Translations under genes and position numbers: made by a program
Notes under the pieces: generated by a model
Seen by the model: the letters and a program-made list of their open reading frames with translations, nothing else
Databases searched by the model: none
Told to the model about the DNA's origin: nothing
Assembly (NCBI GenBank): GCA_043811375.1
Contig: JBDRNJ010000072.1
Location: forward strand, 128,001-192,000
Length of the DNA stretch: 64,000 nt
Source of the DNA: a bacterium
GTDB taxonomy: Bacteria > Zixibacteria > MSB-5A5 > GN15 > FEB-12
Direction of reading: 5' to 3'
In this document: positions 1 through 8,360 of the stretch, piece by piece
Layout: every line of letters begins with the position of its first letter
Numbering within the stretch: position 1 is the first letter of the stretch

Positions 1-814
1 GGGTGAAAGTATGATAGATAATGATATCGTTCAGGCGGTTGAGAAACTCCGGCCGGAACTTCGTGAAAAGGAAGCCGCGGACCTCTTCCATATCGAGGTC
101 GCGGCCCTCCCGGTCAGCATCCAGAATCTTGTCAGCGGCGTAGTTGGATGTCAGCACTACGATAGTATTGGAGAAATCAACGGTGCGGTTCTGCCCGTCG
201 GTAAGGCGACCATCATCCAAAAGCTGCAGCAACACATTAAAGACATCCGGATGGGCTTTCTCTACTTCGTCAAAAAGGACAATCGAGAACGGTTTGCGTT
301 TGACGGCTTCAGTCAGAACGCCGCCTTCCTCATAGCCGACATACCCGGGTGGAGCGCCAATCATCTTGGCCACCGAGTGCTTTTCCATGAACTCCGACAT
401 ATCCAGCCGGACCATGGCATTCTTGTCGTCGAAGAGAAACTCCGCCAGTAGCTTGGGCAGGTATGTTTTGCCGGTTCCGGTCGGTCCCAGGAAGAGAAAC
501 GATCCGATCGGTCGATTTGGCAGCTTCAGTCCCGCCCGGGCCTTGCGTACGGCATTGGCAATCCCCCTGATAGCCTCCTTCTGGCCGACGATTTTCTTGC
601 TCAGGAACGCTTCCATATTGACCAGGCGATCCTTTTCCGCCGTGAGCATCTTTGACAGCGGGATACCGGTGCGGCGAGCCACCACCGCTCCGATGTCGGC
701 ATCGTCTATCTTACGTTCCAGCGATTCAACGACCGTCTTCAGGGAATTGAATGTCTCGACCTTGCTGTCGAATTGCTTTATCAGATCCGCAGGGTTCACT
801 TTTGGTGCCGTCAT
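1..814 (-). CDS. Clp/Hsp100 ATPase, stand-alone second AAA+ module (NBD2 half); 3' end runs off the window
   Basis: Absent from the ORF track because it has no stop in the window. Manual translation from ATG 814 gives [18 protein letters not shown]...[10 protein letters not shown]...[17 protein letters not shown] (Walker A)...[30 protein letters not shown]...[12 protein letters not shown] (Walker B)...[12 protein letters not shown] overlaps the upstream stop (ATGA). Confidence 0.92.
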
Positions 815-2271
815 TTTTCCGCTCCCGCCAGAGCTTCCAGGCGATGACCCCAGAATCCGTGCAACCGGTCCACCTCGCGAGAAAAGTCGTCGCAGGCCGC
901 TTGCAGTTTCTGTAAATCTTCAGTGTCCGTCTGCGGATCTTTATCCCGACAGGTCTCAAAGAGCTGTCGGACCCTGGCTATCTGCTCCGTGATACGCGGC
1001 ACTGCTTCGCGGGCGAACTCTTCCTTGACGCTGAACTCCGACCCGGCTTCATCAACCAGGTCCAGCGCCACATCGGGGAGGTTGCGTTCACTGAGATAAC
1101 GGCGGGAGTATTTCACAGCGCCATGAATCGCTTCCGTCGTGTAGGCAATTTTGTGATGTTCGGCATACTTAGCGATAACACCGTTAAGGATTCGCGTGGC
1201 CTCGTCCTCACTGGGCTCCTCGACCTTCACTTTCTCGAAACGCCGGTCGAGAGCCTTGTCTTTTTCCAGGTGCTTGGTGTATTCCTCCTCGGTAGTGGCT
1301 CCGATCAGACGAATCTGCCCACGGGCCAGGGCCGGTTTGATGAGATTGGCGGCATCCATACCGCCCGAACCGCTGCCGGCTCCGGTGATGGTGTGAATTT
1401 CATCGATGAACAGGACTAGCCGGCCGCCCGACTTGACGACCTCGCCCACCAGGGTTTTGAAGCGTTCCTCAAACTCTCCCTTGTACTTGGCTCCGGCCAC
1501 CAGTGAGCCCATGTCGACTTCCATAACCTTGACACCCGTCAGCGCCTGGGGCACCCGGTTCTCAATCACCGCCTGGGCGAAACCCTCAACGATTGCCGAT
1601 TTTCCGACTCCGGCGCCGCCGACCAGAACGGGGCTGTTCTTGCGTCGGCGCAGAAGTATCTGGATCAGTTGCTGCAACTCCGACTCACGACCTATCATGG
1701 GGTCGAATTCGCCGGCACTGGCCCGGTTGGTCATATCCACGCAGTAGCGCAGAGTGCCGGCTACTTCTTTTTTGGATTCGCCGGCGGGTTGGCCTTCTGC
1801 TGCCGAGGGCGCCGTCGTGGCAATCTCAGCCACCGATTTGCTTTCGGCGATCGCTTTATAGCAGTCTTCACGGGTGATGTCGATCTTGTCGCGCAGATAA
1901 GGCGACAGCTTGCTTTTGGGATCAAGGATCGCAATAAAGATATGCTCCGGTTCGACCAGGGCATCGTAGAGCTTGTTCTTTTCTTCGAGGGCCTGTTGCA
2001 GCACTTCCTGAACGGCCGGACCGATACTGAGGTTTTCACGTGCCATTTGGCGCCCGGCTTGTTCCTTGAGGTGTTCCTCGGTGATCGATTCAATCAGGCC
2101 GGGACTTTTGCCGAGTTGATTAAAGATTGATTCTACTTCGGAGGCCTCCTGGCGCAGGACGGCAATCAGGAGGTGTTCCACCTGGATTTCCGGGTGACGG
2201 AAGGTTGCGGCCACTTCCCGGGCGTTTTTGATAACCGCCCGTGAATCCGACGAGTAACTGGCTATATCCAT
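811..2271 (-). CDS. Clp/Hsp100 ATPase N-terminal half (Clp_N repeats + NBD1 + start of middle coiled coil); ClpB/ClpV-like
   Basis: Clp_N repeats (EHLLIA, EPEHIF), [24 protein letters not shown] (Walker A), [19 protein letters not shown] (Walker B), [17 protein letters not shown]. Stops at 486 aa. Confidence 0.92.
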
Positions 2272-2494
2272 AAACCCGTGTCGCCTCTCTCTTCCTTAAG
2301 GCAGGCCTCAGGTAGTCCCTGACCCACTGCAACTTGGCCAAGATGTGGTTTAAGCCTTTTTATTAACATATCAAACTGCCGAAGTCAAGGGGTTTGTGAA
2401 TCTGCTCATCACCCGGTACAGGGGACCGGCTGACGAAAACCCAGGCGAGACCACCCGGCGCGCAGGCCGACCCCGGGGTCAACCGACAGCCAGA

Positions 2495-7184: not shown

Positions 7185-8288
7185 TCAGTTCTCAGTGCCG
7201 ACGTCATTCAGATTCGGGAACTCAACCCGAAACTCGCCCGGAGGTACTTTATCTTCTTTCTTGTAGCCGTTTCCGTCCAGGTTACCCGTGCGCACCGTTC
7301 CATTCGAAAGACGAAGAATGTATGCCTCGTTAGCTACAGGATTGCCTTCCTCATCCTTCAGCTTGATCTCGATCCAATCCCGGTACTCCAGCATGCCCGA
7401 CTTCGCCTCATAGCCACCGACCCTTACGGTGAAAAAGTACTGCGGAGCTGACAGCTTTTTGGAAGTTTGTGTTGAAGTGGTATCGTCCGGCTGATCTTCG
7501 TATTCGTACTGCCACCCCTGTTCTATCTTGTCGCCAACTTCAACATTGCGAATGGTCCTGATCTTCACGGGCGGCTCGTTGATGTCCTGCCGGCAGATTT
7601 CAAGGGTGGCTTTTGTTCCGGGTTCGAAACCGGCCGTCTCAACCAACATCTTCACGGTATCCCCAACCCGGGCCTGCTTCTGCGACCACTCGGCTTTGAT
7701 GATTCCCTTCAGTTCGATATCGTGATTGCCCGGTTCGACACCGGTTTTCTTGACTTTGCCGTAAAGGCTACCTTCGTCGGTCTGGTCGTCCGGCGCTTTA
7801 ATCTTGTATGCCACGCCGGTAATCGGTTTGCCGCCTTTGTCCTTGAACTTGACATCAAGGTAGTGGTTTTCGGTCTCGGCTTCATCCTCGGATCCGGAGC
7901 CATCAGCCAACTCTTTGGATACGCCGGCGTCGGCGCCTTCCTTTCCAGTCACCTGTTTGCCTCCGGCACTGGCCATGCCACCGCCACCACCACCACCGCT
8001 GCCTATCAGAACGGTGTTGCAGCCCATTATAATTACATCCGGGGGACCGACACAGGTGCACTGATCAGTGACTCTCGCCGCCGGTTGACCGCAAATCAGG
8101 ACGGTGGGAGCTCCCATTATTATCGGCCCGCCGACATGCGGCGGGGGCGGACCGCCGGGGATAGGACAGGTGTGCATATCCCCCAGGCGGGCAGCAGGCA
8201 CACCTCCGATCAGCACCGTCGGTGCTCCAGCCACGATAACACCACCGTGAGCGGTGGAGTCACCCAATCTGGCTGCCGGCATTCCCAT
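7185..8288 (-). CDS. PAAR-domain spike-tip protein with C-terminal extension (Gly linker, Ig-like and transthyretin-like domains)
   Basis: Three PAAR motifs (PAARLGD twice, PAARVTD) with His/Cys Zn-ligand candidates (TAHGG, HTC, PHVGG, CTC) in the first ~97 aa. Confidence 0.93.
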   Translation of the reverse strand: MGMPAARLGDSTAHGGVIVAGAPTVLIGGVPAARLGDMHTCPIPGGPPPPHVGGPIIMGAPTVLICGQPAARVTDQCTCVGPPDVIIMGCNTVLIGSGGGGGGGMASAGGKQVTGKEGADAGVSKELADGSGSEDEAETENHYLDVKFKDKGGKPITGVAYKIKAPDDQTDEGSLYGKVKKTGVEPGNHDIELKGIIKAEWSQKQARVGDTVKMLVETAGFEPGTKATLEICRQDINEPPVKIRTIRNVEVGDKIEQGWQYEYEDQPDDTTSTQTSKKLSAPQYFFTVRVGGYEAKSGMLEYRDWIEIKLKDEEGNPVANEAYILRLSNGTVRTGNLDGNGYKKEDKVPPGEFRVEFPNLNDVGTEN

Positions 8289-8330
8289 GATCAGTCACCT
8301 GTGAAACGATATGTTGCGTTTACCTTTCTT

Positions 8331-8360
8331 AATATAGCTGAGCAGGAAGCGTCAAGTCAA
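8331..8360 (-). promoter_or_regulatory. Putative sigma70 promoter of the PAAR operon
   Basis: Minus strand TTGACT-N18-TATATT about 40 nt upstream of the PAAR ATG. Confidence 0.5.

Follow-up and report, generated by a model that had tools for sequence, protein, structure and literature searches.

Cargo genes of a Zixibacteria type VI secretion locus point to a probable stand-alone effector carrier beside a Bacteroidota-type tail

Background

Among the subtypes described for type VI secretion systems (T6SS), T6SS-iii is reported in Bacteroidota only, and always with part of the TssNQOPR set, in the available text of PMC10781749. Here we analyze a related locus in a bacterium of the Zixibacteria (GTDB lineage Bacteria; Zixibacteria; MSB-5A5; GN15; FEB-12), found on contig JBDRNJ010000072.1 (C72) of assembly GCA_043811375.1 (G000; 3.56 Mb, 95% complete). 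The stretch analyzed, positions 128,001 to 192,000 of that contig (G000:C72:128001-192000; 64,000 nucleotides), is called the window throughout, and coordinates given without a contig or locus name refer to it. Seven genes form a single minus-strand run at positions 1-8288 of the window, and we consider one of them, the PAAR-less tail paralog Tail297, to be its most informative gene.

The choice of effector has been described for spike proteins that bear transthyretin (TTR)-like domains: in the accessible portion of PMC6684961, such domains on VgrG determine the effector that it carries (VgrG1-Tle1 in enteroaggregative Escherichia coli, VgrG4b/VgrG5-PldA/PldB in Pseudomonas aeruginosa). Paired delivery of two effectors on one spike is attributed to the adaptor BtapC of Bacteroides fragilis GA3 (PDB 9JG8) in the part of PMC13699834 that we could access. 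DUF4157 and DUF4280 appear as toxin trafficking domains in the available text of 10.1101/2021.10.19.465003, while that of PMC8651086 treats DUF4280 as a PAAR type and leaves the phylum Zixibacteria unmentioned. A literature search by title and abstract, which excludes supplements and any genome-wide T6SS tables in them, returned no Zixibacteria T6SS, two-gene ClpV or Tail297-type carrier.

A note written earlier from the letters of this DNA had read the gene run as the cargo end of an injection system. Our analysis agrees: the run is very probably the cargo end of a T6SS. Judged from sequence, Tail297 is quite probably a dedicated carrier of the cargo encoded in the second of two variable gene slots, because Tail297 and cargo genes also occur as orphan islands, because the two are fused in frame in relatives, and because its third domain (D3) tracks the cargo family.

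Results

Gene content of the locus

The earlier note had placed the structural genes to the left of the window or elsewhere in the genome. They lie directly to the left of position 1, where VgrG, Hcp and sheath genes are all present in the order tssB, tssC, tssD/hcp, vgrG, tssE, tssF, tssG, tssK, followed by three genes that we call U319, U741 and U183. Matches exceed the family cut-offs for sheath and tube (TssB, PF05591, 32.4 bits; TssC, PF17541, 242 bits, E = 1.6e-71; TssD, PF17642, 71.4 bits, E = 8e-20), for the spike protein VgrG, which here has no TTR-like extension (PF04717, 80.5 bits; PF05954, 66.5 bits), and for the baseplate (gp25, TssE, 47.7 bits; TssG, 63.6 bits; VasE/TssK, 32.6 bits). 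TssF, matched at just E = 0.009, was assigned from position and size. An extracellular contractile injection system (eCIS) would be marked by an Afp-type sheath and tube, a LysM spike, baseplate J and no TssK; this locus has TssB/C, TssK and Clp, and by its gene content it is a T6SS with a Bacteroidota-type (T6SS-iii-like) tail and not an eCIS.

The system is widespread in the phylum. TssC was matched in 151 of 285 genomes, or 145 after six weak matches (E 1e-6 to 1e-8) were set aside. The closest annotated plasmid-borne TssC proteins belong to Bacteroidota (27-30% identity), and a TssC tree from a quick search, with its backbone left open, separates six Bacteroidota rows from the 59 others with support 100. 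Among 63 related loci, Zixiibacteriota is the commonest of the named sources; Krumholzibacteriota, Calditrichota and depositor labels such as Ignavibacteriales also occur.

The seven genes run in the order that the earlier note had given, namely PAAR367, U379, HEAT307, DcrB, Tail297, U388 and Clp (two open reading frames), and its description of the individual genes stood up, the likeness of U388 to FAM78 being putative. PAAR367 (7185..8288, minus strand, as for all features of the run; 367 aa) is an extended PAAR protein with a match to PF05488 over the cut-off (E = 1.3e-23, 83.4 bits); it consists of a PAAR tip (residues ~3-96), a Gly linker, a TTR-like part (143-194), a D2 domain (197-298) and a second TTR-like part (303-360). 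Behind it stand U379 (6025..7164, 379 aa), a slot-1 cargo protein and candidate effector, and HEAT307 (5092..6015, 307 aa), whose HEAT_2 match (E = 6.8e-6, 26.7 bits) is slightly below the cut-off of 27.7. The DcrB/DUF1795 (EagR-type) chaperone gene (4652..5095, probable start ATG at 5089) matches PF08786 well over the cut-off (E = 7.9e-12; 45.8 bits versus 27.2). Tail297 (3745..4638, 297 aa) has the domains D1 (10-114), D2 (115-233) and TTR-like D3 (234-292) and is without PAAR. U388 (2495..3661, 388 aa), the slot-2 cargo protein and second candidate effector, is followed by no partner gene. Neither Pfam nor NCBIfam has a family that matches U379, Tail297 or U388 (for U379, none at E ≤ 1), and there is no clear transmembrane helix in PAAR367, U379, Tail297 or U388. 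The name FAM78 refers to a putative likeness of short motifs; no FAM78 protein or model is among the matches returned for U388.

A conserved frame with two variable slots

Related loci keep one order: PAAR, slot 1, DcrB, Tail297, slot 2, ClpV. A co-oriented gene stands directly behind 27 of 29 PAAR genes (in two cases it is DcrB) and behind 56 of 67 Tail297 copies. The 25 slot-1 genes fall into nine families and the 55 slot-2 genes into 28; no family is mixed and no BLAST match at E ≤ 1e-5 crosses between the slots. The slot-2 gene of one locus (L110), which carries a TTR-like domain and had been labelled PAAR367, was dropped from this count. Between the source genome and its relative G040, the frame is conserved (PAAR 79%, DcrB 77% and Tail297 82% identity) against 47% for U379 and 35% for HEAT307; the last 30 residues of HEAT307 are nevertheless almost identical in the two genomes, as expected if cassettes swap by recombination near dcrB. 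DcrB is a part of the fixed frame and is not bound to one effector.

In relatives, the domains recognised by Pfam are PG_binding_1, LysM, OmpA, SH3_3, VanY, Zn_dep_PLPC, Metallophos and PAD in slot genes, and HEAT_2, PQQ_2, FG-GAP and pentapeptide repeats in their partners, several of which start with lipoprotein-type signals. As an unusual candidate effector we note the slot-2 gene of G245 (L157:6180-8813), which has a protein-arginine deiminase domain (PF03068, E = 3e-43). In two further loci (L130, L131), the PAAR-to-Tail297 frame is inverted and diverges from the clp-tss operon.

Tail297 as a candidate carrier

Tail297 is indeed a PAAR-less paralog of the PAAR367 tail: its residues 118-290 (173 aa) are 37.6% identical to residues 196-359 of PAAR367 (E = 1e-36). 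The profile of its D2 also matches the corresponding range of PAAR367, and the D3 profile matches PAAR367 at two places, and also small slot-1 proteins and PF13620-bearing extensions at the N-terminus of five U379 or U388 relatives. In a profile search of solved structures, D3 matched a biofilm-associated protein repeat (E = 1e-4). A reading of D1 and D2 as repeats of each other finds no support (hhalign, 1%). Among the 285 genomes, 149 have a Tail297 match at E ≤ 1e-10, and 141 remain once eight weak ones (E 1e-11 to 1e-16) are set aside. Of these, 138 are among the 145 tssC genomes, and the other three, which are 64-81% complete, have Tail297 without tssC; the sole match in each of G050, G101 and G121 may be a PAAR tail.

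The orphan islands separate Tail297 from the rest of the frame. In 11 of 16 regions around Tail297 matches, neither PAAR nor DcrB lies nearby, five cargo genes in four of the orphan-island regions match slot-2 families at 32-41%, and three regions hold two carrier-cargo units in tandem. Fusions join Tail297 to cargo directly: in seven of ten longer relatives, an N-terminal part with all three domains runs on in frame for 295-880 extra residues. The extensions carry PG_binding_1, metallo-hydrolase or amidohydrolase domains in three relatives, and that of P0238 matches an entire stand-alone slot-2 gene in G010 (31% over 890 aa, E = 3e-103).

Within Tail297, the domain that varies with the cargo is D3. 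In a set of 53 carriers (54 same-cargo pairs), D3 identity comes to 0.525 where both carriers have one cargo family in common, versus 0.436 in the remaining pairs, while D1 (0.503 versus 0.492) and D2 (0.582 versus 0.554) hardly differ. The residual for D3 is +0.08, a value reached by none of 2000 shuffles, and the rise begins at residue 230.

Several points weigh against the carrier reading. The link between D3 and cargo is positive in eight of 12 families and negative in four, and the pairs are not independent of each other; it can also come from physical linkage alone, as D3 adjoins the swapped cassette. For the last TTR domain of PAAR, the same tracking fell short of significance (21 carriers, reached by 211 of 2000 shuffles). 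The TTR label itself draws on Pfam matches of the TTR-like parts to prealbumin-like (SpaA)/CarboxypepD_reg families (PF17802 and PF13620, E 1e-3 to 4e-6) that are mostly below the cut-off, and all below it on the corresponding parts of PAAR367 relatives; the label is provisional. Finally, for 11 of the 67 Tail297 copies, some of them at locus ends, no gene of 120 aa in the same orientation lies within 200 bp.

The candidate cargo proteins

The predicted model of U379 (pLDDT 91) would consist of two tandem beta-sandwich domains (27-184 and 186-366). Its best fold matches are complement, adhesin and Ig folds (Z ≤ 7.9), and neither a match at Z ≥ 8 nor a Foldseek TM above 0.29 was obtained; no activity is assigned. 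Seven of its 41 sequence matches have PF13620. In the relative P0070, from an Apibacter cluster of 110 members named DUF4280 proteins, the U379 part stands behind a PAAR-like DUF4280. HEAT307 travels with U379 in G040, where the orthologue starts with a lipoprotein-type signal (LLCGC), and the copy in the window has a hydrophobic N-terminus if its start is at 6015. HEAT307 is put forward as a candidate immunity protein for U379 that is probably exported.

U388 has an Ig-like N-terminal part and a C-terminal domain (~176-362) with invariant Q182, D208, D244, W278 and W315; a Big_2-like lead for it is below the atlas bar (score 0.84). It has 327 relatives at E ≤ 0.001, and among 48 picked from 150 listed, 18 carry eCIS_core and 10 CarboxypepD_reg. 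In 19 long relatives, the U388 domain has a C-terminal place in 13 (all with eCIS_core, PF13699), an N-terminal one in five and an internal one in one; U388 itself is without eCIS_core. Invariant polar residues cluster in both U379 (Q224, D259 and D303) and U388. The two were considered as homologues and rejected, the profile comparison giving a probability of 0.5% and their similar-looking motifs finding no support.

The DUF4280 fusion of U379 and the eCIS_core fusion of U388 support the reading of both as cargo, since both are listed trafficking domains. With these fusions and with uncharacterized genes in two polymorphic slots, the claim of the earlier note that the effectors are unrecognised finds support, their toxicity being a matter of prediction. 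That U379 and U388 are delivered effectors seems to us reasonably likely, and an antibacterial target is favored by a somewhat smaller measure. Weighing on the other side, Pfam, NCBIfam and structure searches gave no toxin family, catalytic motif or clear fold for either protein, and most of the slot-region proteins scanned have no Pfam match (two sets, of 72 and 47 proteins, the larger made up of 59 from slot regions and 13 flanking genes of loci without the frame). U388 is without the partner gene that an antibacterial toxin normally needs, and its domain may be structural, given its N-terminal place in five long proteins.

A ClpV encoded by two genes

The split Clp ATPase that the earlier note had seen consists of a ClpV/TssH-like first gene (811..2271, 486 aa), encoding Clp_N, AAA module 1, the lid and the first middle-domain helices, and a second gene (1..814, extending to G000:C72:127708; 368 aa in total), encoding the remaining middle domain and AAA module 2. 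The two share an ATGA overlap. Each half has intact Walker A and B motifs (Walker A at 218 and Walker B at 287 in the first), and together they cover residues 1-469 and 480-835 of the 840-aa fused form with no loss.

In 46 of 76 distinct loci, the cut is placed at one and the same loop, behind a motif of the type W-G-H/Y-R; of the other 30, two have the same second half and a broken first half, 13 are fused, three are interrupted at another place and 12 gave no score. This survey covered 84 regions (eight of them duplicates), of which 20 genome regions were picked for contig size and spread and the others are close pattern matches. The recurrence of the same-loop split means that it is not an assembly error, and together with the intact halves it also rules out a pseudogene. 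The match of the first gene to TIGR03345 (ClpV; E = 2.4e-116) is below the whole-protein cut-off, as are those to the ClpB and ClpA models, which score equally high; a separate housekeeping ClpC lies on contig C24. Fused forms need four changes on the TssC tree, in which L111 was mislabelled as split, and a single origin may apply; no order of events is drawn from it.

A candidate membrane anchor

Searches for the known membrane complexes were negative throughout. TssN, TssO and TssR (PF17555, PF17561, PF17643) were found in none of four genomes (G000, G040, G077, G148), with all three positive in a Bacteroides finegoldii control. By family profile, IcmF-related_N (TssM) and DotU (TssL) gave no match in the one genome searched, and ImpA_N (TssA) and T6SS-SciN (TssJ) none in five, the E. 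coli control being positive in both cases. For TssP and TssQ, no Pfam match at E ≤ 0.1 appeared in the three genes after tssK, and no genome-wide search was made.

Those three genes are the candidates for an anchor. U319 occurs in 145 of the 285 genomes, 143 of them in common with the 145 tssC genomes, and 138 genomes have neither (these genomes are related, not independent); it was also matched in all three Krumholzibacteriota genomes checked. Its model (pLDDT 86) is all helical with a C-terminal membrane helix. The fold search gave unrelated helical repeats at best (Z 8.1) with no Foldseek match at E ≤ 0.001, and its profile touches the B. finegoldii tssO weakly (E = 1.4e-4, 14.5 bits). A complex prediction lends weak support to contact between U319 (14-272) and the TssK head (345-482), with a score of 0.44 against 0.00 for the best of three controls, contacts agreeing to at least 82% and partner pLDDT of at least 83. 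The mark used for such predictions was reached by 116 of 157 solved pairs and two of 215 mismatched pairs, but at scores up to 0.60 by just 18 solved pairs and both mismatches.

In U741 the GTPase motifs G1, G3 and G4 are invariant, and the protein has a single membrane helix with a long outer part, a topology equal to that of TssM. It is nearest to DO-GTPase2 (E 1e-5 to 1e-6; 23.5 bits here against a cut-off of 27, and 28.5 and 28.7 bits in two relatives), and one member of its family touches IcmF-related_N weakly (E = 0.0019). A GAP1-N2-like gene follows U741 in G014 and G244 (E = 9e-5 and 5e-4, slightly below the cut-off) and is absent from the present locus. In the deeper-branching G014, G008 and G244, such a gene takes the place of U183 after U741 (L062:7367-8173, L070:7029-7862). 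Three other loci (L066 and L068 in G252 and G253, and L054 in G170) have no detected U741 after U319; it may be elsewhere or lost.

U183 (L001:7107-7658), an exported 183-aa protein, has a conserved hydrophobic helix close to the C-terminus. It stands last in the operon in 15 of 21 long regions and is a candidate for the outer-membrane part. It may be VirB10/TrbI-like, a reading with no support from Pfam among 15 members or from the PDB. Profile searches of solved structures with U183, U319, U741, U379 and U388 gave nothing meaningful. Against the system as we read it stands the fact that these searches identified no outer-membrane part of the machine.

Other features of the locus and of related genomes

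A sigma-70-like promoter candidate (TTGACT-18-TATATT; 10 of 12 consensus matches) lies before the PAAR gene (8331..8360, minus strand). The scan found two such sites versus 5.0 ± 2.4 in shuffles, fewer than by chance, and the site is suggestive by position only. A terminator-like hairpin of seven pairs, a consensus match only, lies between U388 and the Clp gene (2441..2458, minus strand); here the scan gave 16 sites versus 9.4 ± 3.2 in shuffles. A search of sequencing runs listed one DNA match, at a share of 0.06, and no RNA match. Upstream of PAAR (8514-10240, minus strand), sequence points to nucleotidyltransferase and NAD-dependent epimerase genes, and a similar pair precedes PAAR in G032. 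At the other end of the locus, the T6SS operon is met from the opposite direction by plus-strand genes (L001:333-6978) for a Ser/Thr kinase, a pair of CsgG/TPR proteins, a likely beta-barrel and an LRR lipoprotein. Comparable genes occupy this place in many relatives, possibly as a regulatory or envelope partner module.

The source genome holds a separate eCIS-like cluster on contig C38 (C38:121-8909), with a sheath, two tubes, a LysM spike protein, VgrG, a 92-aa PAAR, gp25 and a 1026-aa baseplate protein. It was recognised by eye and by VgrG, PAAR and TssF cross-hits, and its contig (9.6 kb, 52.4% GC) could be mis-binned. In the phylum, the sheath matches of six genomes of family f9 (G190-G195) are all weak (E 1e-6 to 1e-8); these genomes have no U319, and each has a single weak match to a Tail297 domain. 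In G025 and G026, a weak Tail297 match is all that there is, and like the f9 genomes they may carry another contractile system. In G077 (L040), two hcp/tssD genes stand in tandem, like Bacteroidales loci with minor Hcp subunits.

Discussion

Proposed mechanism and rival explanations

Starting from the observed gene content and order, the frame with its two slots, the non-overlapping cargo pools, the islands, the fusions and the two-gene ClpV, we infer from sequence the steps of binding, secretion and toxicity that follow. Two separate cargoes are probably loaded on one spike, the slot-1 product by PAAR367 and the slot-2 product by Tail297. As known for its family, PAAR367 would cap VgrG. By analogy with the TTR domains of VgrG, the TTR-like domains would grip the cargo, with U379 on the terminal TTR-like domain of PAAR367 and U388 on D3 of Tail297. 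With help from the DcrB chaperone, Tail297 would dock on the spike; the probable site is the PAAR extension, which has two domains in common with it. HEAT307 would shield the periplasm of the producer from U379, and contraction of the sheath would inject the load into neighboring bacteria. The ClpV halves would rejoin via the middle coiled coil and recycle the sheath, while U319 and the GTPase U741 would hold the baseplate (through TssK) at the membrane, replacing the known membrane complexes.

Other explanations start from the same genes. If U379, U388 and the other slot products were spike-borne adhesins or structural extensions of the same T6SS, with Tail297 as a decoration that extends the spike, one would understand the beta-sandwiches of U379 with their complement, adhesin and Ig matches (Z ≤ 7.9), the Ig-like start of U388 and its missing partner gene, as well as the LysM, PG-binding and OmpA domains, which bind cell walls and do not require killing. 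Hydrolase domains that occupy these slots as well (phospholipase C, metallophosphoesterase, VanY, PAD) argue otherwise, as do the cargo-partner pairs that travel together and diverge fast, the invariant polar clusters, and the fusions to DUF4280 and eCIS_core, and we consider this explanation unlikely. Tail297 might instead stay in the cytoplasm as a chaperone that resembles the DUF4123/DUF2169 adaptors and passes cargo to PAAR or VgrG. Such adaptors typically stand just upstream of the effector, with C-termini that track it (available text of PMC11925235), and Tail297 shows the same pattern; in the in-frame fusions, however, Tail297 must travel with the cargo, and it has two domains in common with a secreted PAAR protein, which makes an unsecreted role very unlikely.

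Two explanations concern the machine rather than its cargo. A membrane-tethered contractile system firing inward or at its own envelope, governed by a switch of the DO-GTPase conflict type and serving defence or programmed death, would accord with the failure to find TssJ, TssL, TssM, TssA, TssN, TssO and TssR and with U741 being nearest to DO-GTPase2, next to a GAP1-N2-like gene in G014 and G244, a pairing as in the conflict systems of PMC7159879 (in its accessible text). We hold it to be quite improbable, as polymorphic cargo with exported or lipoprotein partners would suit protection from toxins that arrive in the periplasm, the topology of U741 is that of TssM, with a weak touch to IcmF-related_N in one member, and a dedicated ClpV implies repeated firing. 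It is extremely improbable that the cargo genes belong functionally to the eCIS on contig C38, with the T6SS as a chance neighbor: that cluster does have its own sheath, tubes, VgrG, PAAR and baseplate, and the U388 domain is common in eCIS_core proteins, but its own PAAR is short, U388 is without eCIS_core, most related loci have the frame linked to T6SS genes, and Tail297 tracks tssC (138 of 145).

Implications

Half of the genomes of this uncultured sediment phylum have a related tail, and neither known anchor was found in those searched. This extends the range of such systems and suggests repeated mixing of tails and anchors. If Tail297, which is not VgrG, PAAR or Hcp, is a carrier, it adds a route of effector loading, and the gene behind it becomes a simple genomic marker. 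That marker yields 28 candidate effector families from 55 genes, mostly without a Pfam match, in the main locus and in orphan islands. D3 is a 57-residue module whose role in the choice of cargo lends itself to testing. The case for a further, Zixibacteria subtype of the T6SS, combining a Bacteroidota-type tail, a GTPase-based anchor, a two-piece ClpV and a stand-alone carrier with a swappable, effector-selecting D3, is evenly balanced.

Comparison with known systems

The locus resembles T6SS-iii, as characterized in the accessible text of PMC10781749, in its TssC (PF17541), its Hcp (PF17642), the presence of the tssB-I and K set and the finding of no TssA or TssJLM. It differs in a TssC that is 27-30% identical and on its own branch, in TssN/O/R not being found, in the split ClpV and in U319-U741-U183 after tssK. 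Judged by its genes it is a variant of the T6SS, one that would work like T6SS-iii but in which the membrane complex of that subtype was not found. U741, with its GTPase motifs, single membrane helix and long outer part, is reminiscent both of TssM and of the DO-GTPase/GAP1 conflict systems of PMC7159879, in whose available text the term T6SS is absent; its matches to DO-GTPase2 and IcmF-related_N are, in contrast, below the cut-offs. The Clp proteins are like ClpV/TssH in having Clp_N, two AAA modules and intact Walker motifs and in adjoining tssB/tssC, with a predicted role in sheath recycling, and differ in being encoded by two genes cut in the middle domain.

DcrB is like the EagR proteins in matching PF08786 over the cut-off and in being encoded near a PAAR gene. 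Known Eag proteins shield the transmembrane helices of PAAR effectors (available text of PMC11925235), whereas PAAR367 and Tail297 are without a clear helix and DcrB stays fixed as the cargo changes. The two variable effector slots recall the V1/V2 regions of B. fragilis GA3, and the BtapC adaptor of that strain is likewise beta-rich and serves paired effector delivery on one spike (both in the accessible part of PMC13699834), yet no sequence link connects Tail297 with any solved T6SS protein. U379 residues 26-184 do align with BtapC (9jg8_C; Z 7.0, rmsd 3.3, 108 aligned), within the range common among beta-sandwiches. A further parallel is with the VgrG TTR-like domains of PMC6684961, so far as its available text goes: a short, C-terminal TTR-like domain on a spike-linked protein tracks the adjacent cargo, and orphan carrier-cargo islands occur. 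In the present locus, that domain is found twice on PAAR and once more on a stand-alone protein that has no VgrG, PAAR or Hcp domain of its own.

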